Source: a virus
Lineage: Duplodnaviria; Caudoviricetes
DNA: 55,168 nt
Reading direction: 5' to 3' (one strand)
Virus record (IMG/VR): IMGVR_UViG_3300031673_000058
Location: 1-55,168 of that record
The notes under the pieces: generated by a model
Database searches by the model: none
The model's input: the letters and a program-made list of their open reading frames with translations, nothing else
Told to the model about the DNA's origin: nothing
Position numbers and translations under genes: made by a program
Shown here: positions 8,841 to 55,165 of the stretch, piece by piece
Layout: each line of letters opens with the position of its first letter
Position numbering within the stretch: the first letter of the stretch is position 1

Positions 8841-8940
8841 AGAAGGGCCGTTAAACGGCTTTAATGGACGTTTTGACGGTAGACAGTAGGCCGTAGACGG
8901 TAGATAGGTGGGAGTTAGGGCGTTGAAAAATGCCTGTTAA
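8841..8940. other. Tripartite site 1
   Basis: AGAAGGGCCGTTAA-acggct-TTAATGGACGTTTT ... AAAATGCCTGTTAA; 80-bp unit 8861-8940. Confidence 0.85.
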
Positions 8941-8954
8941 TGCAGGAGGTGGGT

Positions 8955-11651
8955 ATGAAGAAGAAAAAAGTGGAGCGGGGGCAACCTCTGGATGAGGTGA
9001 AGGGCAGCATCGACTATATGTTGATGCAAATCCGGCGCGATTTCCGGGCGCAGTTTGTCACGACAGACGAGTGGTGGCCGTGGATTCGGGAAATCTTCGC
9101 CGCGCACGTCATCGTCGAAAGCGAGGAGCTGCAACCAGAAGAATTCTACTTTGTCACGTATCAACGCGAGGGGGAGCGTTACGTGTTCGCGCCGCGTGAG
9201 CAGTGGGAGGTGGTGGAGCTGGCATACGTGCCGCAGACTACCGACCGCCCGATGCAGGAGAGCACGCAACGACAAAAATGGGTGGAAACGATCCCCACGG
9301 CGGTGCGGCTGTTGACCGAAGGGCAGCAACCTAATCCGAATGGACCATGGTTGATCGCGGGAATGGGAGTGACTGCCGACGTGGTGAACGCCAACGGGCG
9401 GCGATATCCGGGGCCGGTGCTGGAAGCAGCGCTGCGACGATTACGCAGTCATCTGAATGAAAGCGCCGGGCAAGGACGTCTCAAGGTTGAGGCGTCTTCA
9501 GTGGTGACGGGGGAAGCGGATCATCCGAACTCGAAGGGAAATCGGCATCCACTGTTGTTGGAGACCGTGGTCAATTGGACCGGGGTCGGGTTCGACGGCA
9601 AGCACGCGACGGTATCGGGCAAACTGTTGGGCACCAGCAACGGGCGGGATGTGCGCGCCATGATGGAGGGCGGCGTTATTCCGGGTATCAGTCAACGCGC
9701 TTACGGAGAATCTAAAATAGTGGAAGAGGATAGTCAGCAGATCGAGGAGGTGACGTGGTTGGAGATCACCGGTTACGATCTGACGGCTCCATACCAGCAG
9801 AGCGATCCGGAAGCGGGTGTGACGCTGTTTGAAAGTCAAAAGTCGAAAGTTGAAAGTCAAAAGTCAGGAGATGAGACTATGTTACTTGATTTGGAAAAGC
9901 TACGAAAAGAGTATCCCGACCTCGTGCGGGCAATCATCGAGGAACACGATGCGCAGAAGCGCGTCGAATTGGAGGAAGCCCTCCGCGCGAAGGCGGAGGA
10001 TGATGAGCACAAGCGCAAGTTGTTGGTCGAGCACGATCAAGAGCTGCGCAAGTTGCTTGGTTTGAACGAGACCGCCGACATCACCGAGGCGATGCGGATG
10101 CAGGCCGAGGAGCTGCTGAAGTTGCGCGAGGAGAAGCGCGCGCGGGAAGTGAGCGAGTACATCGAGTCGCAGACCAAAGACCTGCCCTACAACGAGGTGA
10201 TGAAGCGGGCGTTCGTCGAGGCGGTCAAGGCTGCCGCACCGAAAAGTGTGGATGAGGCGAAAGTTTTCATCGTTGCCAAGCGCAAGGAGTACGACGCGAT
10301 TCAGGCGCAATTGGTGTTGGAAAGCCGGGGCTACCACGGCGGGATACGAGTAATGGGGCCGGTCATCGAGAGCGAGTTGGGGATTCCGGCGTTTGCGCGC
10401 GCGGGGTGGGCGCTGCAAGAGAGCATGATGAACTCTGGCCTGCGCCGGTGGGATCACCGCAAGCCACTCACGGCGGCGGAGATTTTCGCGGCGAAGTATC
10501 TGGCGCGCTTCGATGAGGCCCACAAGGGGCATCTGTTGCGTGAGGCCAGACTTTTCGAGGAAGCGGAAATCGCTAACGATCTGAATCTGCCCTATAGCGT
10601 GAGCCGGGCTATCGTAGCCGAGGCCATTCCGATGTTGATCGCGGCAGATGTGTTTGCATTCGGGACAACCGACGTCAGCCCCTTCCGCCTCTACTACGAA
10701 GTCTTCTCCGGCGACACCGGTTACACGGGTACATCGACCAGCGAGACGGTGGTGGCAGATCTGGATACGTGGGTGGTGATGACCTATAAGCGACTCACCC
10801 CGGGCGCGGTGGTCGTGACCAACTCCGGCGTGACCGTGACTTACACCGAAGGCAGCGACTACGTCGTCGACTATGCCGGTGGGCGGTTGAAGGCGTTGAC
10901 CGGTGGGCTTATCGCCGACAGCCAATCCCTGCGGGCCACTTATAACTACACCGCCATCCGCAAGGGCGAGATGTCGCCCATCGAGCACGGCGAACTGAAC
11001 CTGACCTACAAGACGATGGACGCCGCTGCCGACCGGCTCGCGCAACAAATCAGCAACGAGGCGGTGGTCTTCAGCCGCTCGCAGCTTGGATGGGACGCCA
11101 CCCAGCGCACGCTGTCTACGCTTGTCTCGCAGATCCGGCGCAAGATCGACCAGGGCGCGCTGTATATGGGGCTGAGCGCCGCGTTGAGCGTCGCCAGCAA
11201 CATTTCCGGGACGTGGACCAGCGCGACCGACACGCTGGATGCCCTGGTCAAGCTGATCGGGCAGGCCAGCGTCAAGGTTTACAACCGCTTCTACACGCCG
11301 ACCGGCATCATCGCCAGCAGGACCAACGCCGATCTGATCAGCAACTGGAGCGGGTTCAAGCGTGACGGGTTCCCGGACGCGGTACTCAACGCCAATGGCT
11401 TCGTGGGGCGGATCAAGGGGTTGCCGTTGTTCGCCAGCACCGAGTTCAGCGATGGGTATCTGCTGGTCGCCAACCGGGAGTTGGTGATGCACTGGGTTTA
11501 CAGCCCGATGACGATCAAAGGGCCGTACCCGACCTACGATGTGAGCGGCGCTACGAGCAAGCTCCTGGCGGCAGATCAGTATTATGCCGAGGAGTACAAC
11601 GTGACCGATTCGCCGGTGGCGGAGAAGGGGGCGTTAGTGAAGATTGCTTAA
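8955..11651 (+). CDS. Fused prohead protease - scaffold - major capsid protein
   Basis: ADVVNANGRRYP, GEADHP and GISQRAYG protease motifs; charged coiled coil; C-terminal capsid-like region with a beta-rich insertion. Confidence 0.85.
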   Translation: MKKKKVERGQPLDEVKGSIDYMLMQIRRDFRAQFVTTDEWWPWIREIFAAHVIVESEELQPEEFYFVTYQREGERYVFAPREQWEVVELAYVPQTTDRPMQESTQRQKWVETIPTAVRLLTEGQQPNPNGPWLIAGMGVTADVVNANGRRYPGPVLEAALRRLRSHLNESAGQGRLKVEASSVVTGEADHPNSKGNRHPLLLETVVNWTGVGFDGKHATVSGKLLGTSNGRDVRAMMEGGVIPGISQRAYGESKIVEEDSQQIEEVTWLEITGYDLTAPYQQSDPEAGVTLFESQKSKVESQKSGDETMLLDLEKLRKEYPDLVRAIIEEHDAQKRVELEEALRAKAEDDEHKRKLLVEHDQELRKLLGLNETADITEAMRMQAEELLKLREEKRAREVSEYIESQTKDLPYNEVMKRAFVEAVKAAAPKSVDEAKVFIVAKRKEYDAIQAQLVLESRGYHGGIRVMGPVIESELGIPAFARAGWALQESMMNSGLRRWDHRKPLTAAEIFAAKYLARFDEAHKGHLLREARLFEEAEIANDLNLPYSVSRAIVAEAIPMLIAADVFAFGTTDVSPFRLYYEVFSGDTGYTGTSTSETVVADLDTWVVMTYKRLTPGAVVVTNSGVTVTYTEGSDYVVDYAGGRLKALTGGLIADSQSLRATYNYTAIRKGEMSPIEHGELNLTYKTMDAAADRLAQQISNEAVVFSRSQLGWDATQRTLSTLVSQIRRKIDQGALYMGLSAALSVASNISGTWTSATDTLDALVKLIGQASVKVYNRFYTPTGIIASRTNADLISNWSGFKRDGFPDAVLNANGFVGRIKGLPLFASTEFSDGYLLVANRELVMHWVYSPMTIKGPYPTYDVSGATSKLLAADQYYAEEYNVTDSPVAEKGALVKIA

Positions 11652-11656
11652 CCTCA

Positions 11657-11697
11657 CCCCCTGACCCCCTCTCCACACGTGGAGAGGGGGTCAGGGG
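11657..11697. repeat. REP-like GC-rich hairpin after the capsid gene
   Basis: CCCCTGACCCCCTCTCCAC...GTGGAGAGGGGGTCAGGGG. Confidence 0.7.
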
Positions 11698-11742
11698 ATC
11701 AGATCAGAAATCAAAAATCAGAAATTAGAGAGGAGACGAACG

Positions 11743-12315
11743 ATGAAACTGAAGCAAAGTTTAACCTGGGTTGGATTGATTGCGCTGGCATTGGTGGTGC
11801 TGCTGGCGGGGAGTGTGGCGGCCAGCCAGCCGGGTGAGCCGCTGCCGGGGACGGTGCAGGGGATTCGGGGGCCGAACATGTTCTGGAATGGTGCGGTGGT
11901 TGCGGGATCGACCGTGACCTACACCGATGCGCCGAAGACGGTTTTCGGCAGCGATATCAGCCTGATCTGGATGTATCACAGCGCGGACATCTTTGTGACC
12001 GCCGACATTTCGCCTTCTTCGTACATCACGATTACGCCACAATTCAGCGTAGATCAGAGCAACTGGGCGGATGCCACTTATACCTACGTAGCCAACACGC
12101 TGGCCCAGACTACGACCGTTGTGACCAGCACCGGCACGGCAACCTCGACGACATCCATGAGTTCGGCGGTGACCGAAGCGACGTATCAAATCACTATGAG
12201 CGCGGACGGCACGGATTATCTGCGAATTCCGTTGACCGGGAAGTATGTACGGTTCAAGATCGAGCACAGCAGCACAGTGACGCCAACGATCAGCGTGATG
12301 TTGCGGAACGACTAA
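11743..12315 (+). CDS. Thr/Ser-rich beta protein with a signal peptide
   Basis: MKLKQSLTWVGLIALALVVLLAGSVAA; RBS AGGAG. Confidence 0.75.
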   Translation: MKLKQSLTWVGLIALALVVLLAGSVAASQPGEPLPGTVQGIRGPNMFWNGAVVAGSTVTYTDAPKTVFGSDISLIWMYHSADIFVTADISPSSYITITPQFSVDQSNWADATYTYVANTLAQTTTVVTSTGTATSTTSMSSAVTEATYQITMSADGTDYLRIPLTGKYVRFKIEHSSTVTPTISVMLRND

Positions 12316-12387
12316 CACGGTAGACGGTAGATGGTAAACGGAAGACAGGGGCGGGGTCACCTGCCCCTGTTTATGCAGGAGGGCAAT

Positions 12388-12642
12388 ATGGCAAAAGTGA
12401 AGGTGTTGCAGCGACGGGTGGTGGCACATCGATGGCGCGATGTGGACGACGTGGTAGAGGTGGACGAGTACACGGCGCGACAGATGGTCGACGATGACCC
12501 GGAGGCGTTTGTGTGGCTGGATCGCCCGGTGCAGCAGTTCGTGGACGTGGTGGAACCTGCGCCGGTGGACGACAATCCGGCGGCGCTTCCAGCACGCCGG
12601 CGCAGCAGGAAGGCGGAGGCAAATGATAAACGCGCAGGGTAA
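12388..12642 (+). CDS. Small head-associated hypothetical protein
   Basis: RBS AGGAGG; position after the capsid gene. Confidence 0.55.
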   Translation: MAKVKVLQRRVVAHRWRDVDDVVEVDEYTARQMVDDDPEAFVWLDRPVQQFVDVVEPAPVDDNPAALPARRRSRKAEANDKRAG

Positions 12643-12931
12643 GATGCAGGTTTATGAAGCACCTTTTGTGGCGGTGGGAGCACACACGAAAAATGCTGCT
12701 CTCAGCAGCACGGTGACGCTGACTGCGCCGGCGGGGGTCAATGCGCTCAAGATCCAGGTGGAGACGAAAGCCGTGAGATACCGATTGGATGGGACTGCGC
12801 CGGATGCGACGACCGGTTTTTCGATCTCCGCCGGTACATCGATCATTATTCCGATCAGCCCGGGCGGGGTGATCAAGATCATCGAAGAGGACGTCTCGGC
12901 AACTGTGCAATACCAGTGGGGGACGGTGTGA
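12623..12931 (+). CDS. Hypothetical structural protein (beta-rich)
   Basis: RBS GGAGG; VRYRLDGTAPDATTGF motif. Confidence 0.6.
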   Translation: MINAQGKMQVYEAPFVAVGAHTKNAALSSTVTLTAPAGVNALKIQVETKAVRYRLDGTAPDATTGFSISAGTSIIIPISPGGVIKIIEEDVSATVQYQWGTV

Positions 12932-13593
12932 GCATCGCACTCGATGACCTGGTGACGCGGTTGCAGGCCGACGTACTGGCGCGTGGCGGTGTGCCTTCCT
13001 CGGCGCAGTACGAGTACGCGGTCAAGGACGCGGTGGCGGATTATGCGCGGCGGCGTCCGATGACGCTGATTGCGATGCTGGCAGTGGTCAGCGGGACGGC
13101 GACCTACGCGCTCCCCGATGATTTCCAGTTTCTCATCAAGTTGGATGATTTTACCGCGCGGGATGGCATCATCCACACGGCGGCGGGGATCGTGCCGCTG
13201 TCGAGCAACTGGAACGAGCGATATACGGTGAACGGGTTGACGATCACGTTCACACCGACGCCGAATTACACGCTGAGCCGCACGCTGCGCTACGTGGCGG
13301 GGCACGTGTTGAACTCCAGCGAGGTATATCCCTATCTCACGGATGAGGATGCGGGAGTAGTGCTACTGAAGGCGCAGGCTATCGCGCTGCGCAAGCAAGC
13401 GCTGGCAGCGGTGACGGCCTCCACCGGCGAGATCGTGGAATACGCGATTGGCGACGAACGGGTGAAGAAGGCGACTTCCTCTGATAGTTTGAAGGCAATG
13501 GCGGTGGCATTGGAATCCGAGTATCTGGAAACCGTCGCCGGTGGGTCTACGGGCAGCCGGGCGCGCTACGATAGTCTGGGGCTGCTGATATGA
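12928..13593 (+). CDS. Head-tail adaptor-like protein
   Basis: GTATYALPDDF; YAIGDERV; position. Confidence 0.6.
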   Translation: MSIALDDLVTRLQADVLARGGVPSSAQYEYAVKDAVADYARRRPMTLIAMLAVVSGTATYALPDDFQFLIKLDDFTARDGIIHTAAGIVPLSSNWNERYTVNGLTITFTPTPNYTLSRTLRYVAGHVLNSSEVYPYLTDEDAGVVLLKAQAIALRKQALAAVTASTGEIVEYAIGDERVKKATSSDSLKAMAVALESEYLETVAGGSTGSRARYDSLGLLI

Positions 13594-13988
13594 TGGATTG
13601 TACAATTTACGATTTGCCGGTCAGTATGGATGATTTCACTACCAGAGTTCTTACAGCAAATTCATCCGATGGGGGAATCGTTGGATTTGCAGAGTTATCA
13701 CAGCTAGACTCTGAGTTTGTATGGATTGATCGACTATTTGTAGATCCAAAACATCGTCGTGTTGGTGTTGGATCTAGCTTGATAGCGACAATTAAAAGAT
13801 TTGCCAGCGTACTCGGTAAAGGTGTTTGCCTCGGCGTTAAATGTACAAATGAAGTTGCTATCAAATTTTATGAAAAAGTCGGTTTCCGGCGCGTGTATCA
13901 GTATGCTGATAGAGGTACATATATGTATGGCTGGTCTGGCGATACACGTGTAGATGGAACCGACGGAGTTGCTGATAGGGCTAAATGA
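13590..13988 (+). CDS. GNAT acetyltransferase (AT-rich insertion)
   Basis: LFVDPKHRRVGVGSSL; NEVAIKFYEKVGF. Confidence 0.85.
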   Translation: MMDCTIYDLPVSMDDFTTRVLTANSSDGGIVGFAELSQLDSEFVWIDRLFVDPKHRRVGVGSSLIATIKRFASVLGKGVCLGVKCTNEVAIKFYEKVGFRRVYQYADRGTYMYGWSGDTRVDGTDGVADRAK

Positions 13989-14004
13989 CCAGGAGTGGTA
14001 ACAG

Positions 14005-14319
14005 ATGATGGATTGGATGCAGGCGGCGACAGACCTGGCGGCGGTGCGCGGCGACAACGCGCAAAGCATCACGATCCGGCGCGGGGGAACGACGCTGGCG
14101 GCGCAGAGCGCGCGTATCGCACGGATGGGCGGCGGCAGCGTGCAGCAGGACGGTCAGGCCCGGGCCAGCCGAGGGCGCATCGTCGTATTATTTGGAATGA
14201 CCGGCAATGTGCAACCAGGGGATCGCTTCAACGATAGCACGGGGCTGTTGTATGAGGTGGTCATTGTCAGGCCGAATCAACGCGCGGCGGTGGTGGCCGA
14301 GGCCGAGGTGGTGCAATAG
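14005..14319 (+). CDS. Head closure-like protein
   Basis: Beta-rich ~100 aa; VQPGDRF; position. Confidence 0.55.
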   Translation: MMDWMQAATDLAAVRGDNAQSITIRRGGTTLAAQSARIARMGGGSVQQDGQARASRGRIVVLFGMTGNVQPGDRFNDSTGLLYEVVIVRPNQRAAVVAEAEVVQ

Positions 14320-14347
14320 AGCAGGATGGGGAGGATGGTAGGATAGG

Positions 14348-14788
14348 ATGGGGAGTGCTCTCAAGTTTCGGTGGGTGAAACGGCCTAAGAAGATTCAGGA
14401 GCGCATTGAGCAGGAGTTCGGCGACGGCGGGCGGCTGTTCGTGGCGCTGCACGCGGTCGCGGCGCACTGGGGCTTGTCGGTGCAGAACGCGGCGCGCAGC
14501 GGGGCGAAGTGGGAAGACCGCACGGGTAACGCGCGCAGTGGTTTGTTCTTCGCGGTTGATGGTTTTGGGATGCCGGCGATCACCGGCATAGTCAAAGTCG
14601 ATCCCTCGCTGAAGACGGACACGGCGACGATTAGCGGAACTAAGCAGCGGTTGGTCGTCACGTTGGGTCACACGGTCTTTTACGGGAAGTTCCTGGAACT
14701 CAATGCACGCTATGGTATTGTGATGAGCACGCTGGAGAGCAATTTATCACGCCTGGAAGCGATGATGCGGGGGTTATTAAAAACATGA
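14348..14788 (+). CDS. HK97 gp10-like tail completion protein
   Basis: AKWEDRTGNARSGL; YGKFLEL. Confidence 0.75.
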   Translation: MGSALKFRWVKRPKKIQERIEQEFGDGGRLFVALHAVAAHWGLSVQNAARSGAKWEDRTGNARSGLFFAVDGFGMPAITGIVKVDPSLKTDTATISGTKQRLVVTLGHTVFYGKFLELNARYGIVMSTLESNLSRLEAMMRGLLKT

Positions 14789-16098
14789 GCCTGGCAAACC
14801 AGATCACGCAGTTGTGGCAGAAGTGGCTGACCCGCGACCGTGGCGAGCAGACCACGAGCGAGCCGCGTTCCAAGCCTAGCGTGGGAGACGAGTTGACACG
14901 CCTGAGCGCCGATCGCGCGCGTCAAGCGATTATCGAGACGTGCCGGAAGATGTACGACGAGGATCCGCGCGCGGACGATGTGCTACACACGTTGGCGCGG
15001 GATATGGTGGGCGCGGGGTTCACGGTGACGACGGGCAACGCCGCCGCCGACCAGGTGGCCGCCGATCTGCTGACGCGGCTCGATCTGGTCTCACGGCTCG
15101 ACGACTGGATCAGACTCAGCGCACGCGACGGCGACTCGTTTCTCGAAGTGGAGATCAGCGAATCGCGGGAGATCGTCGGGGTGACGCGCAAGCCGACGAT
15201 TGAAATGCACCGCAATTCAAATCGGCAGGATCAGTTCGACGATCCGGCGCGGGCGTTTTGGTGGAGCGACGCGCCCTATCAAACCGGGCTGAAGCCGCCG
15301 AGCGATGCGCTGTGGTTTGCGGAATGGCAAATCATCCACGCGCGGTGGAGCCACGACGAGGGGCAACGCTACGGGCGGCCCCTCTTCAGGAGCGCGACCG
15401 GCGTGTGGAAACGGATCACTGAGGGGGAGCACGACGTCGCCACCCGGCGCAAGACGCGTGCGGGGATGAAATATAATCACCAGTTCCCTGTAGGAACGTC
15501 GGCCCAGGAGATTGAGGGGTACAAGGTGCTCAATGCCGACATTCTGGATAGCCCATTGGCCGCGATTCAGGACTTCTTCGGCACGGCAGAGATCAAGACG
15601 GTCGAGGGTGACGCGCGACTCGGTGAGATCGGGGACATTCTCCATCACGTCCGCACCTGGTGGCTGGCCTCACCAGTGCCGATGTCGCTCCTGGGCTACG
15701 GGCAGGATTTGAACCGCGACGTTCTCCAGGAGCAGAAGGAGCAGTACGACGAGACCCTGGAAACGCTGCGGCCCTGGACCGAGAAAGAGATTCTGCGCCC
15801 GTTATTTGCGTTGGCGTGGTTGCTGGCGGGAATTTTGCCGGATATGCTGACGGTCGAGTATCACTGGAAGGCAAAGAAGGTATTAAAACCGGCTGACCTG
15901 CGCGACATCGCCGAGGCCGGGGTGCGGCTGCGCGCGTTAGGTCTGCCAGACGCGGCAGTGTGGTTGTTGATGCAGCGTTTCCTGCCGGATGTGGAATGGG
16001 ATACGCTGCTGACGCCGACCGGCGACGCGGCAGAGGGTGCGCCGGACGTGGCGGCAAATTCGGCCGATCGATTACTGGCGAGGGTGAATGGCGAATAA
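14785..16098 (+). CDS. Portal protein
   Basis: 437 aa; RDGDSFLEV, WQIIHARW, YGRPLF, PVPMSLLG. Confidence 0.8.
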   Translation: MSLANQITQLWQKWLTRDRGEQTTSEPRSKPSVGDELTRLSADRARQAIIETCRKMYDEDPRADDVLHTLARDMVGAGFTVTTGNAAADQVAADLLTRLDLVSRLDDWIRLSARDGDSFLEVEISESREIVGVTRKPTIEMHRNSNRQDQFDDPARAFWWSDAPYQTGLKPPSDALWFAEWQIIHARWSHDEGQRYGRPLFRSATGVWKRITEGEHDVATRRKTRAGMKYNHQFPVGTSAQEIEGYKVLNADILDSPLAAIQDFFGTAEIKTVEGDARLGEIGDILHHVRTWWLASPVPMSLLGYGQDLNRDVLQEQKEQYDETLETLRPWTEKEILRPLFALAWLLAGILPDMLTVEYHWKAKKVLKPADLRDIAEAGVRLRALGLPDAAVWLLMQRFLPDVEWDTLLTPTGDAAEGAPDVAANSADRLLARVNGE

Positions 16099-17314
16099 AA
16101 AGACGCTAGCCGATATTCCGAGCAATTTGGCGGGAGACGCGCAGCAAGCCGGGCTGATGCGGCTGCACCTTTACTTTGTGGGGCAGACGCACCAACGGTT
16201 GAACGCGCTGGCGACGGAGTTCCGCGCGATTGCGATGCAGCACGCCGACGAGGAGGGGATGCTCAACGATCTGGGACTGTTGTTCGCGCAACGGGATATG
16301 CTGGCGGCCTGGCAGACGTTTTATCGCGGCTGGCAGGCGCTCTTCGAGGCGGCGCGCTGGCAGGCGGGAAGCCTGGCTTACGGCGGCCTGGCGGTTCTGC
16401 ACCGGGGGGCGAGCGAATTAGCGAATCAGCAAATGAGCGAATCGGTAAATCAGCGATTCAGTGAAGGGGTGAATCGCCAATTCTTGGAAATGGTGGAGGA
16501 GCCGGATTTTGACGCGGTGTTCAGACCGCAGTTGCAGGAGGTGCTGGACGCGGCGAATCGCCGGTTGTATGGCGATGGGCTGACGCTAAGCCAGAGGATC
16601 TGGAATCAGGATCAACAATCTTGGAATGGCATCCGCGCGACCCTGATGCAGGGCGTCGCCGAGGGGAACAGCGCGTGGAATGTGGCGAAGCAATTGGAGC
16701 AGTATCTCGGCGGGGGACGTGATTGTCCCAGATGGACCAGCACGCGCTTGTACGCGCGGACGAAGCAGGATATCGCCAGCGGGGACCGGACCGGGCTGTA
16801 CAGCGGCACGGCCTGCGCGGGGCAAGGGGTGGCGTACAACGCGCTGCGCCTGGCGCGAAATGAGTTCCAGGTCGTGCATCACATGGCGACGGATGACATT
16901 TTCAGCAAGATGCCCTGGGTAGAGAAAGAAGCGATCAATCTCAGCCCCAGTCACCCGGATATTTTTTGCGCGTGTGAGGACGTCGTCGTCAACGGGGAGG
17001 ATGGTACCAATGTCTACCCAAAGGGCGAGATCAGCCTGCCGATTCACGTGCAATGCCTGTGCTATAAGACTGCGGTGCTGATGGATGACGCGGCTTTTGT
17101 AGATAAGACACGCGGCTGGTTGAACGGGACGCAGCCCTGGGGTGCGATGGACGATTACGCCTCGTGGTTAGGCGTGATGCCGCAGAATATGTTCGCGACG
17201 AGTCTGGCCGTGGGGATTGCGAACGATCTGGTTGTGTGGCTGTGGGGCGACGAAGAGGACTTGGAGGCGCTGCTCGGCGATCAGACGGTGCAGTTGCCGT
17301 TCCCGGAAGATTGA
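16088..17314 (+). CDS. Minor head protein, MuF/SPP1 gp7-like
   Basis: LSQRIW, YNALRLARNE, PIHVQCLC. Confidence 0.8.
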   Translation: MANKKTLADIPSNLAGDAQQAGLMRLHLYFVGQTHQRLNALATEFRAIAMQHADEEGMLNDLGLLFAQRDMLAAWQTFYRGWQALFEAARWQAGSLAYGGLAVLHRGASELANQQMSESVNQRFSEGVNRQFLEMVEEPDFDAVFRPQLQEVLDAANRRLYGDGLTLSQRIWNQDQQSWNGIRATLMQGVAEGNSAWNVAKQLEQYLGGGRDCPRWTSTRLYARTKQDIASGDRTGLYSGTACAGQGVAYNALRLARNEFQVVHHMATDDIFSKMPWVEKEAINLSPSHPDIFCACEDVVVNGEDGTNVYPKGEISLPIHVQCLCYKTAVLMDDAAFVDKTRGWLNGTQPWGAMDDYASWLGVMPQNMFATSLAVGIANDLVVWLWGDEEDLEALLGDQTVQLPFPED

Positions 17315-17334
17315 AGATTGGGAGATTGGGAGAT

Positions 17335-17434
17335 TTAACGGGCGTTTTGTAGAGTGATTACGCGCGTATTCAATGGGCGAAACGCGGGGTATACGGTATA
17401 GAAATGACGGTTAAAGCGGATTAACAGAAACTAT
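17335..17434. other. Tripartite site 2
   Basis: TTAACGGGCGTTTT ... GAAATGACGGTTAA-agcgga-TTAACAGAAACTAT; 80-bp unit 17335-17414. Confidence 0.85.
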
Positions 17435-17882
17435 GATAATTCTACTTGGTTGCGGGAATGATTTCAGGCCGGGGTGTGTGCATGTGGACCGGGTGGCATT
17501 GGGACACGTGGACGTGGTTCACGATTTGAATATTATGCCCTGGCCGTTTGGCGACGATGTGGCGGAGAGGATTGAGGCTATAGATGTGTTGGAGCACCTG
17601 GATAACACCGTCGCCGTTATGGACGAGTGCTGGCGCATTCTTCAGCCCTCCGGTGTGTTGCACGTCCAGGCGGTGGGGTGGCAGAGCGAGAATCTGTGGC
17701 GCGATCCCACGCACAAGCGCGGGTTTCATCCCGATACGTTTTTGTATTTCGATCCTGAGAGTTCATGGCATCAGTCTTATGGGCGTTTGTATACCGAACG
17801 CGCGTGGGAGGTTCTCTGGCGGGATGTGCGCGACGGGAATGTGGTGGCGGAGATGAGGCCCAGGAAAAAAGATCATAGATAG
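17433..17882 (+). CDS. Class I SAM-dependent methyltransferase
   Basis: LGCG, DVVHDLN..PWPF, VLEHL, WRILQPSG, DPTH. Confidence 0.85.
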   Translation: MIILLGCGNDFRPGCVHVDRVALGHVDVVHDLNIMPWPFGDDVAERIEAIDVLEHLDNTVAVMDECWRILQPSGVLHVQAVGWQSENLWRDPTHKRGFHPDTFLYFDPESSWHQSYGRLYTERAWEVLWRDVRDGNVVAEMRPRKKDHR

Positions 17883-17896
17883 GAGAAATACACGAT

Positions 17897-18067
17897 ATGG
17901 AATATTTGAAAAATCGTTTCTACATTCGCGGTCTAACCCCACTGGGGATTTTTAATACCATCACCGGCTGCATTTTTAATCGTGTGGTTGTTTTACACAA
18001 AGACCGGGATGGAGTAATTCTGGACTGGCACATCGGGCGCGGAACAGATTTTCCGCCCGCTGATTAA
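17897..18067 (+). CDS. Small hypothetical protein (56 aa)
   Basis: Manually translated ORF behind the AGGAG of the linker repeat. Confidence 0.35.
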   Translation: MEYLKNRFYIRGLTPLGIFNTITGCIFNRVVVLHKDRDGVILDWHIGRGTDFPPAD

Positions 18068-18069
18068 CA

Positions 18070-18480
18070 ATGCGTGACACGCTTAGAGACTTCTTGGCGG
18101 CGGATACGACGACGCTGATGGCTACACTCACCGGCGGGCTGTATACCGCGACGGAGATCTCGCGGCAGTTGACGCCCAGCGCCTTTGACGCCAACGACGA
18201 AATTAAACCGTGCGCGCTATTGACATTGGAGGCCGAAGATCCGGTGGGGCCGTTTGCGACCAGCTCACGGCTCTTTGTGCTAGTGTATTTCTACGAGCGC
18301 CAGGGATACACGAACATCGACGCGGCCAGAGGTCGGGTGTACGCGCTGCTGCACCGGCAGCGGATCAGCAGCAGCGGGATGTGGGAGATGCGGCACGTGG
18401 GTGATGTGCCGGACCAGCGCGATGCAGTGCTAAACTGCGCATTGGCATTGAGCCGCTATCAAGTGACGCGATTGAGGTAA
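18070..18480 (+). CDS. Tail terminator-like protein
   Basis: Size, alternating alpha/beta pattern, position before the tail tube. Confidence 0.6.
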   Translation: MRDTLRDFLAADTTTLMATLTGGLYTATEISRQLTPSAFDANDEIKPCALLTLEAEDPVGPFATSSRLFVLVYFYERQGYTNIDAARGRVYALLHRQRISSSGMWEMRHVGDVPDQRDAVLNCALALSRYQVTRLR

Positions 18481-18531
18481 GAACAGGTGCAGCGCACTTC
18501 GGAAAGTGCAACGCACCTAGTGGAGGTGGGA

Positions 18532-19542
18532 ATGCAGCTTACATTTGCGGGATTTCATCAGCCGAAAGACGGATATGGGTACGCGACGATCAAGATCGCG
18601 GCGGCGTTGCTGAAGGATGCGCCGGAGACGACCGTGTTAAACCTGGGTGTGCCGGTGCTGGACGAGGCGCAGCGATGGGAGACTTACGCGCCCACGGTGG
18701 CGTTGTGTACTCCCGATTGGCTGCCGTTGATCGACACCAACGGCGCGCCGTTGGTGAGTTATACGATGTTTGAGGCGACGCGGCTGCCCGCCGGATGGGT
18801 GGAGAAGCTCAACCGCTACGCGGTGCTGGTGTTGGTCCCCTGCGCGTGGTGCAAGACCATCTTCGAGGCCAATGGCGTGACCAGGCCGATTGAGATAATC
18901 AAGTGGGGAATCGATCCGCAGGATTATTTCCCGCTAAAGCGCCGGCATAAGGGCCGCCCGTACACGTTCTTGTGGAGCGGGACTCCCGATGGGCGCAAGG
19001 GCTGGTCGATTGCGTATACCGCGTTCCGGCGCGCGTTTGGGGATCGGAAGGATGTACGGCTCGTGATGCACTTCCGCCAAATGCCGCCGGGGATCAAGGG
19101 CGTGCTCGACGATAATGTGCAGTTGATCGAGGGGCTGTTCGACCTGCCCAAGCTGCGGGAGATGCTGCAAGACGCCGACTGCTTCGTGTTCCCGTCGCGG
19201 GGGGAAGGATGGGGACTGCCGCCCCGCGAGGCCGCCGCGACGGGCCTGCCGGTGATCGCTACGGATTACGGAGGCCTGGCGGAAGATATTTACGCTTGGG
19301 CGCTTCCCATTACCACGAAGGGAATGTCGATAGCCGATTACGGTCCAGAGGAATGGGGCGACCTCGGCTATTGGGCAGAACCGGACGGCGCGGTACTGGA
19401 AGGGTGGCTGCACTGGTGCGTCGAGCATCCTGAAGATGCAGCAGACTTTGGACGGCGCGCAGCTTCAACTATGGCGCGCACGCCCTGGGAACGAACAGCG
19501 CGCGAGATTGTGGAGGTGCTACGATGCAGATTAGGTTTGTAG
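18532..19542 (+). CDS. GT4 (GT-B) glycosyltransferase
   Basis: FEATRLP, RKG, ADCFVFPSRGEGWGLPPREAAATGLPVI. Confidence 0.9.
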   Translation: MQLTFAGFHQPKDGYGYATIKIAAALLKDAPETTVLNLGVPVLDEAQRWETYAPTVALCTPDWLPLIDTNGAPLVSYTMFEATRLPAGWVEKLNRYAVLVLVPCAWCKTIFEANGVTRPIEIIKWGIDPQDYFPLKRRHKGRPYTFLWSGTPDGRKGWSIAYTAFRRAFGDRKDVRLVMHFRQMPPGIKGVLDDNVQLIEGLFDLPKLREMLQDADCFVFPSRGEGWGLPPREAAATGLPVIATDYGGLAEDIYAWALPITTKGMSIADYGPEEWGDLGYWAEPDGAVLEGWLHWCVEHPEDAADFGRRAASTMARTPWERTAREIVEVLRCRLGL

Positions 19543-20428: not shown

Positions 20429-20432
20429 ACGA

Positions 20433-20533: not shown

Positions 20534-20614
20534 CCACGGATAGGAGAAATATCCGATGGGAGCGGAGCGCGCTATGAAAAGCGCGGCTACGGCCACGGGA
20601 AGGAGAAATACACG

Positions 20615-48233: not shown

Positions 48234-48262
48234 TTGACAACGCGGGGAATATCCGCTATAAT
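48234..48262 (+). promoter_or_regulatory. Consensus sigma70 promoter of the recombinase operon
   Basis: TTGACA-17-TATAAT, followed by ATGTTC-atattg-GAACGT. Confidence 0.85.
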
Positions 48263-48274: not shown

Positions 48275-48374
48275 ACGTTGGCCGCTAACGGGCATTAACA
48301 GACGATAAGCGGGTGGGAAGTGGTCGAAAAGTCGGCTTTGAGGATGTTTAAGATCGTTATAAAACGTCAGTTAA
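48275..48374. other. Tripartite site 7
   Basis: ACGTTGGCCGCTAA-cgggca-TTAACAGACGATAA ... AAAACGTCAGTTAA; 80-bp unit 48295-48374. Confidence 0.85.
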
Positions 48375-48861: not shown

Positions 48862-48924
48862 AATGCCCCGGTGTTCGTAGCACCGGGGCGGGCGTCCAAC
48901 ATTTCACTTGAAAGGGGTAAAAGG

Positions 48925-49914
48925 ATGGACAATTTCATTGTAACAGAAACGGCAGTGGAAAGCAAGACCCAAACCCTCGTGGTCTCCACATACGACGAGG
49001 CCTTCGAGCAATGGCTGTTAGAGAAGGATCGCTCTGAGCGAACGGCGCGCTTATATATGACCGGGTTGCGGGATTTCCGCGAGTGGTTCGAGCGCAAGAC
49101 CGGAGATATGTTGAATCCGGCAATGGTGACACCGCTGGACGTGCGCTCGTATCGCCGGTATCTGACCGATGACCGTAAACTGAAAGCACGGTCGATCAAC
49201 AGCTACCTCGCCGCCGTGCGTGCGTTCTGCCGGTGGGCGATGGATAAGGGGCTGGCGATGGGCGACCCTTCCAGCGGCATCAAGGGGATCGAGATTGAGG
49301 AGCAATCACCGCGCTGGTTGAGCAAGCAGGAGCAGTACGCTCTGCTGCGGGCGGCTCAGAAGGAGGTCCAGATCGGCGATCTGCGCGCCGGCGGCGATAA
49401 GGCGGCGCCCGGGTACGTGTGGCCGCGCCGGGATCGCGCGATTGTGGTGCTGATGCTGAACACGGGCTTACGGCTCTCTGAGGTGGCGGCGCTGGATATG
49501 GACGACGTGATGATCCGCCCGCGCTCCGGGCAGGTGACGGTGCGGATGGGCAAGGGACGCAAGACACGCATGGTGCGGCTGAATGCGGATGTGCGCGAGG
49601 CGCTGGACGAGTGGATCGCCACGCGCCCGGAGACGGATGATGCGGCGCTGTTCCTTTCGCAGAAGGGCAAGGCGCGGCTGACCGCGCGGGCGATCGCGCG
49701 GCGCGTGGCGGAGGTCGGGACGCAGGCGCAGTTAAGTGTGTCGCCGCACATGCTGCGCCATAGCCTGGCGAAGAATATGGTGGACGAGGGAATCTCGCTC
49801 GACCAGGTGGGGATGGCCCTGGGGCACAAGAGTTTGGATACGACGAAGCGGTATACCATGCCGTCGGTTGCGGATATGCAGATCGCTATGGAGCGGGTGG
49901 CGTGGAGGGATTGA
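48925..49914 (+). CDS. XerC/D-like tyrosine recombinase
   Basis: SAM-like N-terminal domain; TGLRLSE, GKGRKTR, HMLRH, LGH, TKRY. Confidence 0.93.
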   Translation: MDNFIVTETAVESKTQTLVVSTYDEAFEQWLLEKDRSERTARLYMTGLRDFREWFERKTGDMLNPAMVTPLDVRSYRRYLTDDRKLKARSINSYLAAVRAFCRWAMDKGLAMGDPSSGIKGIEIEEQSPRWLSKQEQYALLRAAQKEVQIGDLRAGGDKAAPGYVWPRRDRAIVVLMLNTGLRLSEVAALDMDDVMIRPRSGQVTVRMGKGRKTRMVRLNADVREALDEWIATRPETDDAALFLSQKGKARLTARAIARRVAEVGTQAQLSVSPHMLRHSLAKNMVDEGISLDQVGMALGHKSLDTTKRYTMPSVADMQIAMERVAWRD

Positions 49915-50081
49915 GGCGCAAGCCTAAAACACAGAGACAATGGGGAGTGAGAGTACCCGCAATAACAAAGTGGCGCCGGTGTTTGTGGAGCAGAAGGCGC
50001 TGCGGGTGATTTGATTGTGGCGCGTAGAATGAGGAGAAATTCGTGTTCTGCGCGCCTTTTTGTGCTGTTAATATGTGTTAA

Positions 50082-50133
50082 TTGGCATTATCCTGGCGCG
50101 GGTGTAGAATCACGGATATAGAACATCTGTTCG
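50082..50133 (+). promoter_or_regulatory. Promoter with LexA box
   Basis: TTGGCA-17-TAGAAT, then AGAAC-ATCT-GTTCG (50120-50133). Confidence 0.75.
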
Positions 50134-50138
50134 GAGGG

Positions 50139-50372: not shown

Positions 50373-50393
50373 GGGGGAGACAGGAGAGTTTGA

Positions 50394-50430
50394 GGCGCCT
50401 GGTTATTGAGATAATCAGGCGCTTTTTATT
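50394..50430 (+). terminator. Intrinsic terminator
   Basis: GCGCCTGGTTAT...ATAATCAGGCGC followed by a T-run. Confidence 0.75.
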
Positions 50431-50580
50431 TTCTCTCAAAATTAACTGGCGTTTCCTGGGGCATTCCAGGGGCATTTCAGGGCAAATGTTCTAAAGCCAT
50501 ATAAACTACCACGTAGATTCTAATTCTAGTTATCCCTAGCGTTCTCTTTGCGTAGGAATAACGCTGTACGGGGAGCGAGA

Positions 50581-50710: not shown

Positions 50711-50754
50711 GTGATAACTCGTGATTGACATCCCGTGTGATCCTGTGAGAGAGT
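50711..50754 (+). promoter_or_regulatory. Repeated promoter element, copy 2 of 4
   Basis: GTGATAACTCGTGATTGACA-N13-TGTGAGAGAGT. Confidence 0.8.
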
Positions 50755-50785
50755 GAGGGCATCTTACTTGAAAGGGGATACGGAA

Positions 50786-51679
50786 ATGGCAAAAAACGGG
50801 GCAAGTCGCAGGGTGAAGGTAGATGTGGACGAGGTTACTTTCGGGGTGGAGATCGAATGCACGCTGCCGAACGGGTACGTGCGAGCGCAGCGGATTCAGG
50901 TCGGGGGATATCACCACGGGGTACAGTTACCAGCGCCCTTCCCGAATGGCTGGACAGCGCAGCACGATGGGTCGCTGGACGCGAATCGTGATTACACCGC
51001 GCTGGAAATCGTCTCCCCGGTGCTGAAGGGGATGGACGGGTTGAATCAGGTGGTCCGGGTCTTTAACATCTTGAACGAGGCCGGCGCGAAGGTGAACCGG
51101 AGTTGCGGTTTCCACGTTCACGTGGGGGTGCAGTCGGTGTTGGGGGAGCGCGCGAACGATGAGGGGTTGGTGGTGCGGTGGGTGCGGCGGATGCTGCACC
51201 TGGTCAGCGTCCACGAGTTGGGGCTGTTTGCGATCACCGGGAAGCGGTCGCGGCTGGACAACTGCTACTGCGAGACGATCAAGGGCCAATGGGATCAGGT
51301 GCTCGAAACGACCAGCAGCCTGGAAACGATCACGCGCAAGGTGGAATATCACGGCGAGCGTTACCACACTCTGAACCTCTGCAATCTGGCGGATGGCAAG
51401 CGCACGGTAGAGTTCCGGGTCTTCGGAGCGACGCTGGACGGCATCCAGGCGATTGGGTATGTCATCACGGCGATGGGGATCACGCACCGCGCTGCGGAGT
51501 GCGGCGTTGCGCCGCAGTTCGATAGTCACGCGCCCACCGTCACCGAAGAGAGTTGCCTGGACGCTGTTAAGACGTTGCAGCGTGCGCTGGCGGATTACGG
51601 CTGGCCGACCGGCGCAAAGCAGTGGGGTAAGGCGATCCGCAAGGCACAGTTAGATGCTGCCCAGCGGTTTGTGGCATAG
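50786..51679 (+). CDS. Amidoligase (COOH-NH2 ligase) family protein
   Basis: TFGVEIE, DGSL, EIVSPVL, SCGFHVHV, RYHTLN, TVEFR. Confidence 0.9.
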   Translation: MAKNGASRRVKVDVDEVTFGVEIECTLPNGYVRAQRIQVGGYHHGVQLPAPFPNGWTAQHDGSLDANRDYTALEIVSPVLKGMDGLNQVVRVFNILNEAGAKVNRSCGFHVHVGVQSVLGERANDEGLVVRWVRRMLHLVSVHELGLFAITGKRSRLDNCYCETIKGQWDQVLETTSSLETITRKVEYHGERYHTLNLCNLADGKRTVEFRVFGATLDGIQAIGYVITAMGITHRAAECGVAPQFDSHAPTVTEESCLDAVKTLQRALADYGWPTGAKQWGKAIRKAQLDAAQRFVA

Positions 51680-51682
51680 GGG

Positions 51683-52309
51683 ATGATGATGAAGACACGG
51701 GTTTTGATGACTTCTGGGTCGTGGGTCGAGGAAATTTACACGCTGTTATCGGGGTTGGGGGCGAGGGTACACATCCTCGCCCCCGGCGAAGATTGGAAGA
51801 AGGCATACCAGGGCGCGACGCACATCCTCATTCCGGGCGGCGCCGACATTGCGCCGCGCGAGTATGGGGAGCGGCCGACGTGGTCGCGCCCGACTGCACC
51901 GGGGCGCGACCGGGTGGAGCTGCCACTGGCGCGCCAGGCGCTAGCCGATGGGAAGCCCCTGATGGGGATTTGTCGCGGGCATCAGGTGATTGCGGTGGCG
52001 GCTGGCGGGGCGCTGCACCAGGACATCGAGCAGGATTTGGGGGTAGCGCATACGGCGCGGCAACACGCGGTCCGCGTCCTCCCGCGATCGCGCCTGGGGC
52101 GGCTGATGGGATCGGCGGCCTGGGTCAATTCCTACCATCACCAGGCGGTGAAGCGCGTACCGGCGGGTTGGCGCGTGGTGGCCGAATCGTTGGATGGAAT
52201 GGTGGTGGAGGCGTTGGAGCATCCCAGGCTGCCGGTGCTTTCGGTGCAATGGCATCCCGAAGTGCTAGAGGATTGGGATCTCTTCCAGTTGTTTTTGGAG
52301 ATGCAGTGA
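51683..52309 (+). CDS. Class I glutamine amidotransferase (peptidase C26/PuuD-like)
   Basis: PGGADI, GICRGHQ, VNSYHHQAV, VQWHPE. Confidence 0.92.
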   Translation: MMMKTRVLMTSGSWVEEIYTLLSGLGARVHILAPGEDWKKAYQGATHILIPGGADIAPREYGERPTWSRPTAPGRDRVELPLARQALADGKPLMGICRGHQVIAVAAGGALHQDIEQDLGVAHTARQHAVRVLPRSRLGRLMGSAAWVNSYHHQAVKRVPAGWRVVAESLDGMVVEALEHPRLPVLSVQWHPEVLEDWDLFQLFLEMQ

Positions 52310-52345
52310 TCAGCTATTAGCGATCAGTAGTTACTTGAAAGGGGT

Positions 52346-53242
52346 ATGGGGATGACGGGGATTCAGGATGTGGCGGTGGTCCGGATCGTGCCGGGCGACA
52401 ATGACCGGGAAGAATTCGAGCCGGTGGCGTTGCGCGAGTTGGTCGACAGTATTGCGCAGCACGGGCTAGCGCAGCCGATCACGGTGCGGCTCTACGGGGC
52501 GGGGTATCAGATTGTGGCCGGGGAACGGCGCTGGCGGGCGGCGCTGCTCCTGGGATGGGAGACGATCCCGGCGCTGGTGCGCGAGTTAGATGACGAAGCA
52601 GCCAGCGCGATTATGCTCTTGGAGAACATCCAGCGGGCGGAGTTGAACCCCATCGAGGAGGCGCGCGCCTATCGCAAACGGATGACACAGTTTGGATGGG
52701 ATGCTGACACAACGGCGCGCGCGGCCAACGTGCCGGTGGAACGGGTGCGGCTGCGGTTGATGTTGCTGGACGTGGTGCCGGAAGCGCAGCAGCTCATCCG
52801 CGACGGGCAGTTGGGGGTGAAGTACGCCTACGTGATGCGCGATCTGGACGCGAACCGGCAGAGACTGGCGTTGCGCTATCTGAGCCTGGTGGACACGCCG
52901 CGCCTGCGGGAGTTCCGCGAGTTGTGCGCACGATTGTTGGCGGAGCAGGCCCAGGAAGCGATGTTCGATATGGCGGCGTTTATGACCGGGGTGCAAGTCA
53001 CGCGCGCCCAGGAAGCCACGAGCCGCCTGGAGCGAGTGATCCCGGTGGACGCCGATCTGCCCGGCGTGCGCAAGGCGCGCTCAGCGGGACAGGCATTGGA
53101 GCGCTACATCCGCGATCTGCTGGACGGGGGGTTGGACGACGCGGCGCGGGTGGTGGGGACGGTGTACCAGGGGTTGCTGGCGCACGGGTTGGTGAAACTG
53201 CCGGGTGGACCTAGTCCGCTCATCCCCGGTGAGACGCTATGA
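52346..53242 (+). CDS. ParB/Spo0J-family protein
   Basis: SIAQHGLAQPITVR, IVAGERRWRA, LENIQRAELNPIEEA. Confidence 0.9.
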   Translation: MGMTGIQDVAVVRIVPGDNDREEFEPVALRELVDSIAQHGLAQPITVRLYGAGYQIVAGERRWRAALLLGWETIPALVRELDDEAASAIMLLENIQRAELNPIEEARAYRKRMTQFGWDADTTARAANVPVERVRLRLMLLDVVPEAQQLIRDGQLGVKYAYVMRDLDANRQRLALRYLSLVDTPRLREFRELCARLLAEQAQEAMFDMAAFMTGVQVTRAQEATSRLERVIPVDADLPGVRKARSAGQALERYIRDLLDGGLDDAARVVGTVYQGLLAHGLVKLPGGPSPLIPGETL

Positions 53243-54287: not shown

Positions 54288-54310
54288 TGGTCAAAATTGG
54301 TGAAAAATTG

Positions 54311-54354
54311 GCGATAACTCGTGATTGACAATCCGTGATTGCCTGTGCGAGAGT
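54311..54354 (+). promoter_or_regulatory. Repeated promoter element, copy 4 of 4
   Basis: GCGATAACTCGTGATTGACA-N13-TGTGCGAGAGT. Confidence 0.8.
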
Positions 54355-54384
54355 GAGCGCATCTTACTTGAAAGGGGATTGGAA

Positions 54385-55077
54385 ATGGACGCTCATTACA
54401 GGATTGCGGATTTACCAGAACGGGAACGACCGGTGAACCGGCTGCGGGAAGCGGGGCCGCTGGCCGTGAGTAATGCGGAGTTGCTGGCGTGTATTTTGCA
54501 GACCGGCGACGCGCTGCACCAGGCTAATGCGTTACTGGCAGAGTTGGGCGGGTTGGAAGGTTTGGCGCGCGCGGAGCAGTGCATGTTCACGGAGGTGCAG
54601 GGCATCGGCCAGGCGCTGGCTACCAGGTTGCAGGCTGCGATTGAGTTTGGGCGGCGGATTGCGGCGGGGGCCGTAGAGGAACGGGTGCAGATCCGCGCGC
54701 CCCAGGACGCGGCTAGACTGGCCGCGCCATTGATCGAGCACCAGGAGCAGGAGCACTTCCTGGTGCTCTTCCTGGACACGCGCAACCGGGTGATCGATCA
54801 CGAGGTGTTGTACAAGGGGACATTGAACACGTCGTTGGTGCGCGTGGCGGAGGTATTCCGTGGGGCGATCCGGCGACACTGCGCGGCGATCATCGTGGCG
54901 CACAATCATCCTTCGGGGGATCCGGAACCGTCGCCAGAAGACATTACTCTCACGCGGCGGTTAATAGAAGCCGGGCAGTTGATGGAGGTCGATATGCTGG
55001 ATCATCTGATTATCGGGCGGGGACGGCATATCAGTCTGCGGGAGCGCGGCGCGGGATTTGAGAATGCGCGCGTGTAG
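54385..55077 (+). CDS. radC: RadC/JAB domain protein
   Basis: ERP..RL...SNAELLA, HhH, QEHF, AHNHPSGDPEPSPED, LDHLII. Confidence 0.95.
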   Translation: MDAHYRIADLPERERPVNRLREAGPLAVSNAELLACILQTGDALHQANALLAELGGLEGLARAEQCMFTEVQGIGQALATRLQAAIEFGRRIAAGAVEERVQIRAPQDAARLAAPLIEHQEQEHFLVLFLDTRNRVIDHEVLYKGTLNTSLVRVAEVFRGAIRRHCAAIIVAHNHPSGDPEPSPEDITLTRRLIEAGQLMEVDMLDHLIIGRGRHISLRERGAGFENARV

Positions 55078-55085
55078 ATTTTTGA

Positions 55086-55165
55086 TTAACTGACGTTTTG
55101 CGATGAAGCTATGAGGCGTGTAACCGGCCGTTCAGCCGGTTACACGCCTTGATAATGGCGGTTAA
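55086..55165. other. 80-bp unit of tripartite site 8 (core continues at 13-46)
   Basis: TTAACTGACGTTTT ... ATAATGGCGGTTAA; interior hairpin AGGCGTGTAACCGGC...GCCGGTTACACGCCT. Confidence 0.85.

Follow-up and report, generated by a model that had tools for sequence, protein, structure and literature searches.

Evenly spaced three-armed DNA sites of fixed geometry in a siphovirus-like genome and its relatives: candidate composite sites for a phage-encoded Xer-like recombinase

The recombination site of the XerCD/dif system has the layout arm, 6 bp, arm; at cer and psi, topology is imposed by the wrapping of accessory DNA. In the TnpI/IRS system of Tn4430, as set out in the available part of its description (PMC2847244), the site measures 116 bp and has a core of two inverted 14-bp motifs with 6-bp staggered cleavage; TnpI binds the core as well as accessory copies of the motif, with the subunits on the latter setting the geometry of the synapse. 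For the pdif modules of Acinetobacter plasmids, the accessible text describes many sites per replicon, which bound gene modules (PMC6449649, PMC7399989). Here, we describe sites that we have termed triads, each of them composed of three copies of a 14-bp arm, in the 55,168-bp viral record IMGVR_UViG_3300031673_000058 (Caudoviricetes), which was analysed over its full length and is called the window below. We report their architecture, their conservation in related viruses, the helical phasing of their interior DNA, their even spacing and their co-occurrence with an Xer-like tyrosine recombinase with intact catalytic residues. A literature search found no phage system with this layout.

Read with the core last, a triad consists of the distal arm (armB, 14 bp), a 52-bp interior, the inverted armA, a 6-bp spacer and arm3, about 100 bp in total. 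The arm offsets are thus 66 and 20 bp, and the unit enclosed by armB and armA measures 80 bp (81 bp once, in S3). The consensus of the 24 arms is TTAAC-N-G-N-C-R-TTTT. The eight triads announced in an earlier note on this DNA are all present where it placed them, and its spacer sequences, its orientations (core left in S1, S5, S6 and S7, right in S2, S3, S4 and S8) and, judged by the gene annotation, its gene-block boundaries are correct. Three arms do occur at each site, as it claimed, but they are unequal: armB is the best conserved, while arm3 is much weaker and keeps only CYGTTAA. The core CYGTTAA-N6-TTAACNG, which has the layout of a tyrosine-recombinase core, occurs in all eight sites.

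S1 (8841-8940) is composed of arm3 (8841-8854), the spacer acggct (8855-8860), armA (8861-8874), an interior of heptamer repeats (8875-8926) and armB (8927-8940), and lies between the TerL gene (7313-8809) and the gene for a protease/capsid-like protein of 903 amino acids (8940-11651). S2 (17335-17434) follows the MuF-like gene; armB (17335-17348) is succeeded by an interior with a ATTACGCGCGTATT palindrome, armA (17401-17414), the spacer agcgga and arm3 (17421-17434). S3 (20433-20533), the sole 81-bp unit, is located between the tail tube (19883-20428) and chaperone genes, with armB at 20433-20446, armA at 20500-20513, the spacer tcgaca and arm3 at 20520-20533. In S4 (27816-27915), armB (27816-27829), armA (27882-27895) and arm3 (27902-27915) flank the interior and the spacer agagag, respectively. 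S5 (32691-32790), at the end of the late genes, reads arm3 (32691-32704), ttggtt, armA (32711-32724) and, across the interior, armB (32777-32790). An extra arm-like copy with three mismatches (32639-32652) occurs 52 bp upstream of its arm3, the sole such case in the window. S6 (41157-41256; spacer gggcgt) lies between ParB and the ParA operon and carries a sigma-70-like promoter, TTTACA-17-TAGATT, in its interior (41203-41231), while S7 (48275-48374; spacer cgggca) is situated upstream of the operon of orf153 and the recombinase.

The core of S8 crosses the end of the record. Its 80-bp unit is found at 55086-55165 (armB, 55086-55099; hairpin interior; armA, 55152-55165), and its core at the record start (13-46), where armA (13-26) repeats 55152-55165 and is followed by the spacer tctgac (27-32) and arm3 (33-46). 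S8 is, therefore, complete only if the record is circular. Bases 1-27 recur at 55140-55166, a terminal repeat that points to a circle or to an assembly closed as one; the source classes the record as linear and 48% complete.

The triad is real, is conserved and stands up to statistical tests. The arm pattern of the earlier note, with at most two mismatches, matches 15 times in the window against 1.24 expected; the maximum in shuffled sequence was five, and none of 100 shuffles reached 15. With a weight matrix made from the 24 window arms, pairs of arms in the window have offsets of 66 (seven pairs) or 67 bp (one) in the convergent arrangement, 20 bp (eight) in the core and 86/87 bp (seven) on the same strand, and they occur almost nowhere else; five base shuffles of each of six genomes yielded no triad at all. 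None of the 38 triads found in six viral records is spanned by an open reading frame of at least 100 codons, as opposed to 86-95% of random 100-bp windows. Triads do not fill every gap, however: by a rough list of open reading frames, they occupy eight of the 22 non-coding gaps of at least 90 bp in the window.

In sequence layout, TnpI/IRS is the characterised architecture nearest to the triads. As in the IRS, a core is combined with an extra arm copy at a fixed distance, over some 100 bp, and one triad (S7) fronts a recombinase operon (PMC2847244, available part). In the IRS as described there, two accessory motifs lie in tandem and in direct orientation beside the core, whereas the triad has a single one, inverted, 52 bp off across phased DNA; furthermore, the IRS occurs once per transposon, whereas 7-10 triads are evenly spaced over a phage genome (PMC2847244, same part). 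Nor is there a single site beside the recombinase gene: one of the 7-10 triads adjoins it, and none does in two of the related records (G002 and G003, see below). With Xer/dif, cer and psi, the triads have in common an Xer-family enzyme, the arm-6 bp-arm core and A/T-rich inner ends. Unlike these and pdif, they have 14-bp arms of unrelated sequence, a single phage-encoded enzyme and spacers that are not common to the sites, and in place of the PepA/ArgR DNA of cer and psi they have a further arm copy as accessory element.

Integron attC sites are imperfect inverted repeats of 57-141 bp ending in AAC/GTT, located between genes and recombined by an Xer-related enzyme; they conserve fold over sequence and work as single-strand hairpins. 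The triads, in contrast, conserve sequence, their arms do not covary, and the recombinase of the window scores 59.8 bits with the integron-integrase model, for which the cut-off is 265, so they lack the defining traits of attC. Among regulatory sites, stoperators are single asymmetric sites oriented with transcription, and GalR-type looping repressors use paired operators at a fixed helical phase to enclose promoters. The stoperators of cluster A mycobacteriophages are many copies of one phage-specific site in non-coding gaps that can block transcription, and the triads resemble them in that many copies of one protein site are dispersed over such gaps (PMC9283540, as far as its available text goes). 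Unlike stoperators, triads have three arms, both orientations and an 80-bp geometry, and no repressor was found. Finally, the PeSL cassettes of T4-type phages, in the accessible parts of their descriptions, combine a promoter with a stem-loop at module boundaries and are proposed to serve modular shuffling (PMC2839356, PMC4122927). The triads are likewise repeated, composite, non-coding motifs at phage module boundaries that carry promoters or stem-loops; PeSL are thought there to act by homology, whereas the triads constitute a fixed-length frame of protein sites around variable cargo and co-occur with a recombinase (PMC2839356, PMC4122927).

Scanning viral contigs for the pattern gave 14 stretches. 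The whole records of the relatives G001, G002, G003, G004 and G005 carry 8, 10, 7, 3 and 3 triads, respectively, and over the 38 triads in six viral records the offsets of 66 (65-67) and 20 bp are kept. The core offset of 20 bp is dominant in five of the six genomes; in G002, where third arms are weak, one pair at 20 and one at 21 bp exceed the threshold. All sites of G002 share an arm variant, TTAAC-N-G-C-N-G-TTTT, a concerted shift (GCNG for GNCG). Further triads exist in L072, L076, L079, L080, L081, L049, L063, L064 and L097. Loci fetched by means of the MuF-like protein (62-70% identical) harbour the same units in the same places with the same 80-bp length, and orthologous sites in relatives retain arms, length and orientation.

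In a collection of bacterial and archaeal genomes, the pattern matched 31 times. Three matches are true contigs of the family (L049, L063 and L064) and 27 were without a triad on rescan; the 31st, L053, is weak with a 21-bp spacing and was rejected as probably due to chance. The three family contigs are binned in metagenome-assembled genomes (MAGs) of Anaerolineae or Chloroflexota, and four homologues of the window recombinase (P0010, P0021, P0041 and P0050) bear the names of Anaerolineae/Chloroflexi MAGs. The host may thus be a Chloroflexota bacterium, the binning of phage contigs being weak evidence; the lineage is apparently linked to a group whose phages are little known.

The interior DNA of the triads is phased. 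We analysed 32 triads of standard length against 2000 shuffles within units: the A/T fraction rises and falls every 10.5 bp, from about 0.2 to 0.8-1.0 and back, and none of the 2000 shuffles reached the observed power. The phasing persists without the units that bear a CG-rich palindrome and is evident in each genome alone (0/2000 shuffles in five genomes, 1/2000 in G005). The interiors are, therefore, not quite the "largely unrelated" sequences of the earlier note: there is little sequence conservation but a common phased pattern. A/T content phased at 10.5 bp is a known signature of DNA bent in one plane, which suggests that triad interiors are bent or wrapped; the interior would then be kept in length and free in sequence because it is bent or wrapped. 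The other option raised in that note, that the sites wrap or organise the DNA with a fixed geometry, is directly supported by the phasing and by the even spacing of the triads. Within a unit, we found no covariation between arms (partners shuffled within genomes; 561-1000 of 1000 shuffles reach the observed pairing over all variable positions), and each arm is thus most likely read independently as sequence, not as a stem.

The frame encloses varied cargo: the promoter-like site in S6, a hairpin with a 14-bp stem in S8, terminator-like hairpins in many interiors of G001-G003, and GGTAGAC repeats or a palindrome in other units. Tandem GGTAGAC heptamers occur inside or beside several triads, always on the + strand whichever way the triad points, and G004 and G005 carry such heptamers too; triad frame and cargo are, thus, independent. 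In the window, there are 24 two-unit matches against 0.23 expected, all on the + strand and seemingly all non-coding, in stretches at 1018-1045, 8878-8905, 12319-12346, 20469-20482, 27779-27799, 27910-27950, 32242-32290, 32660-32673 and 32730-32757. The palindrome, near TGATTACGCGCGTAATCA, matches four times against 0.24 expected (17357-17370, 27838-27851, 53242-55). Similar palindromes accompany units of L009, L010, L011, G001, G003, G004 and G005, either within the unit at a distance of about 7 bp from one of the arms or immediately outside; the palindrome is apparently the site of a second dimeric DNA-binding protein.

Triads are spaced at about 6-7 kb, far more regularly than by chance. 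The gaps between them in the window range from 3.1 to 8.9 kb with a coefficient of variation (CV) of 0.27 (P = 0.0006 against uniform placement; P = 0.0018 against a random pick among the 22 non-coding gaps). The CV is 0.21 in G002 (P < 5e-5, as a circle), 0.35 in G001 (P = 0.009) and 0.21 in G003 (P = 0.0015).

Moreover, both promoters of the window that match the consensus at 12 of 12 positions adjoin a core: the one at 47-74 abuts arm3 of S8, and the one at 48234-48262 ends 13 bp before arm3 of S7. In all, cores abut three of the five promoter-like sites in the window that score at least 10/12. The association between promoters and triads is only partial in G001 and G003. Arms also occur outside triads. 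A lone core-like element, CTGTTAA-tatgtg-TTAATTGGCATTAT (~50058-50091), without a distal arm, overlaps the -35 of a 10/12 promoter at 50082-50110, and two lone arms with one mismatch each lie 13 bp upstream of a promoter-like site at 33911-33938 (33884-33897, - strand) and just past a terminator-like hairpin at 50392-50425 (50442-50455, + strand). Directly after the -10 of the 50082 promoter, there is one copy of a different motif, AACCACGGATA, which has 10 matches in the window (0.66 expected), at 20532, 32802, 36431, 36441, 38660, 38672, 40958, 50108, 53267 and 54216. Every one is on the + strand and most stand shortly before a gene start; it may be a leader or start-site motif.

The proposed binder of the arms is an Xer-like tyrosine recombinase of 347 amino acids encoded at 48871-49914 (+ strand), with a Pfam Phage_integrase domain (1.1e-33) and a SAM-like N domain. 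The protein aligns to XerD and XerC-like structures, and R201, K228, H293, R296, H319 and Y328 are invariant in four homologues that are 44-65% identical. It scores far below the model cut-offs (181.9 against 335 for XerC/XerD, besides the integron-integrase score given above) and is classified by sequence as Xer-like, outside the XerC, XerD and integron-integrase equivalogs. TerL and the recombinase are the only two of the 69 window proteins with homologues in each of the relatives G001, G002 and G003 (tblastn 1e-4; phmmer E <= 0.05); weak cross-matches of the window integrase in the relatives correspond to recombinase paralogues. G003 (L071, L033) has three tyrosine-recombinase paralogues within about 7 kb (19441-20517, ~20971-21414 and ~25948-26637) and G002 has two.

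When loci were fetched by means of the recombinase, triads were present in L072 (12.5 kb) and in all four metagenome loci with at least 49% identity and at least 6.5 kb in length. None of 13 metagenome loci at or below 35% identity had triads, nor did L070 (30%), and in four loci of about 2 kb at 45-66% identity no triad was seen; the search of viral contigs with the recombinase returned only an unrelated integrase (30%) without triads. In four records, a triad precedes the recombinase gene or its operon and has armB on the gene-proximal side; the distance is 26 bp to the operon in the window, 64 bp in G001, ~170 bp in L072 and 31 bp in L097. The recombinase in L097 (1-6000) is 76% identical, and there the triad, the recombinase and a homologue of the window gene at 50082 belong to the leftward operon beside the integrase, as opposed to the rightward early operon in the window. 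The recombinase is the best candidate binder, and we infer its cognate status from this co-occurrence. The reading of the cores as tyrosine-recombinase sites, put forward in the earlier note, is partly supported overall: the arm-N6-arm layout fits, and a catalytically intact Xer-like enzyme co-occurs.

The explanation that we tentatively place first is that triads are composite binding sites for the phage's Xer-like recombinase, wrapped and set at evenly spaced operon junctions, at which strands are exchanged between genome copies, and that they also serve as operators. The core (arm3, 6 bp, armA) would be occupied by two recombinase protomers and the distal armB by a third; the 52-bp interior would be bent or wrapped so that the distal protomer joins the core complex. 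The interior would be fixed in length and free in sequence, to accommodate terminators, promoters or repeats, because the distal protomer must reach the core complex by way of bent DNA. Such complexes would form at the evenly spaced operon junctions, and the active enzyme would exchange strands within the 6-bp spacer, joining a site to its counterpart on another copy of the genome, in the service of multimer or concatemer resolution or of in-register exchange with a co-infecting relative. Binding would double as an operator function where a core abuts a promoter, the recombinase's own promoter included. Binding and wrapping by the recombinase, strand exchange and the biological role are what we infer, and the output of a triad may be strand exchange, regulation or insulation, or both.

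A bolder version of this explanation, which we regard as unlikely, is an addressed recombination grid, in which spacer-specific crossovers let co-infecting phages, or a prophage and a superinfecting phage, swap segments of about 7 kb in register. This would amount to programmed reassortment of a non-segmented genome, with the wrapped accessory arm enforcing the pairing of like with like. That all eight spacers differ, which the earlier note took as a sign of such addressing, carries no information, since a random draw of eight hexamers contains no repeat in about 99% of cases. In favour of an identity particular to each site, however, sequence identity between orthologous sites is 70% in the spacers, 40% in the interiors and 28-40% in the flanks, and the S7 spacer differs in L097 at one of six positions.

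Several observations argue against strand exchange at addressed sites. The spacers share a weak consensus, N-G/A-C-C-N-A, at odds with their use as free addresses. The breakpoints between relatives that the earlier note expected at the triads are not enriched there, transitions in gene content occurring in 8 of 40 triad gaps and 58 of 305 other gaps, and long alignments with G005 and G004 run through S1, S3 and S4. The contigs of four soil-metagenome runs show no joint at a core, although contigs cannot show rare events. The sole joint near a triad, from 8904 to 27925 (side 22), falls within GGTAGAC repeats and was discarded as a repeat artefact. Other points bear on the choice of enzyme and on the role. 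G002 and G003 have no triad adjoining the recombinase gene, and the arm variant of G002 does not follow the divergence of the recombinase: the G003 enzyme is more divergent while the arms of G003 are window-like. The co-occurrence of recombinase and triads is a correlation within one lineage and could merely mark shared descent. The single inverted accessory arm, 52 bp away, is unlike any characterised accessory arrangement checked. Finally, one site is enough for multimer resolution, a role that does not predict even spacing.

Sequence changes at two loci count in favour of recombination, as do the core layout, the conserved catalytic residues, the better kept spacers of orthologous sites and the different placement of the L097 module. 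Upstream of S3, protein identity groups G004 with G005 (83-90%), whereas downstream, it groups the window with G005 (73% and 91%) and leaves G004 at 48-55%; this phylogenetic switch lies between ~20510 and 20600, in about 90 bp that contain the S3 core. In L011 (3401-3960) compared with L009 (3533-3640), with flanks 85-91% identical, 40 bp of the S2 interior are replaced by unrelated DNA of the same length. In the same pair, an indel of about 455 bp begins right after arm3 and carries one gene, the start of which resembles that of the window gene at 17433.

It is quite possible that the role of the triads is purely architectural or regulatory: the recombinase as a mere DNA binder, or else a small phage protein, would clamp the inverted arms and loop or wrap the 80-bp unit with no strand exchange, which would turn the regularly placed operon junctions into insulators, roadblocks or barriers between supercoil domains. 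The 10.5-bp phasing combined with the strict length agrees with this, as do the even spacing (CV 0.21-0.35), the terminator-like hairpins or promoters often carried in interiors, the cores or lone arms abutting the promoters at 47-74, 48234-48262, 50082-50110 and 33911-33938, and the lack of enrichment of gene-content breakpoints. However, every catalytic residue is kept at 44-65% identity, which implies that the enzyme likely still cuts something. The triads of the window have both orientations relative to transcription, four and four, while the heptamer cargo is fixed on the + strand; most triads are without a nearby sigma-70-like promoter, and most strong promoters of G001 and G003 are without a triad. 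As for a small protein, no helix-turn-helix repressor candidate was found among the window proteins examined or the early proteins shared with G002, and in the small ones among the latter Pfam (E <= 1) detected no DNA-binding domain.

It appears improbable that the arms are read by a host protein (a host Xer, a nucleoid protein or a global regulator), the phage recombinase being unrelated to the sites. Nearly identical arms do occur in phages with very few genes in common, and TTAA-N6-TTAAC is superficially like TTAA-rich host motifs, among which is the CtrA box, TTAA-N7-TTAAC. The core spacing is, however, N6 and not N7, and G002 has its concerted arm variant. Furthermore, the three Chloroflexota MAGs with family contigs show no excess of the exact arm (3, 2 and 3 occurrences against 2, 2 and 0 for a reversed control), the identity of the host being itself only hinted at.

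Three other explanations are very improbable. As dispersed centromeres or operators bound by a ParB-family protein, triads would have precedents in KorB and N15, the window encodes proteins of this family, and S6 adjoins parB and parA; this binder is close to refuted by G002 (91% complete, 10 triads), which has neither a ParB_N match at E <= 0.01 nor a homologue of the 687-aa ParB. An RNA-level element, the arms of which pair as a stem to mark RNA-processing sites between operons in the way of the T7 RNase III sites, would suit the position between co-directional genes and the minimum-free-energy folds, in which the arms pair with each other in 17 (one strand) and 14 (opposite strand) of 32 units; such a stem, whether in RNA or as a cruciform, was rejected on the lack of within-genome covariation and of any Rfam match, and both orientations occur, sequence is conserved rather than pairing, and the 10.5-bp phasing is a property of double-stranded DNA. 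A spread of TTAA-bounded mobile elements resembling miniature inverted-repeat transposable elements would fit terminal inverted repeats with TTAA bounds and interiors exchangeable length for length between close relatives, but was dismissed as interiors are unrelated (40% identical even at orthologous sites) while arms are conserved, positions are orthologous across relatives at ~65-85% protein identity, spacing is even, a third arm stands at a fixed 6 bp, and no transposase was found among the annotated window proteins.

If the recombinase binds the triads, this phage lineage has rigid recombinase sites for three protomers every ~7 kb at operon junctions. Strand exchange there, if true, would provide a concrete mechanism for in-register module exchange, a long-standing question in phage mosaicism. 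Binding without exchange, if true, would mean that a tyrosine recombinase fold serves to divide a viral chromosome by building wrapped complexes at regular intervals. Short, orthogonal-looking and geometry-coded, triads could also be useful as genetic tools.

The late region of the window is siphovirus-like and encodes, besides the proteins mentioned above, portal and tape-measure proteins. A megablast search with the first 20 kb against isolated phages gave no match; by tblastn, the closest identities in isolated phages are ~41% for TerL and ~33% for the recombinase. A nuclease and the integrase are encoded leftward, and ParA is encoded together with ParB-family proteins at 38923-40986 (the 687-aa ParB) and 52346-53242, with a weak match at 329-1069. 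A cluster of amidoligase, amidotransferase and ParB-like genes as well as RadC are present in the window. The stretches 329-2043, 5146-6339, 18487-19542 and 50753-53242 together encode glucosyltransferase-like and UDP-glucose dehydrogenase-like proteins, an amidoligase, a glutamine amidotransferase and three proteins with ParB-like domains, a gene set that suggests DNA or sugar modification.

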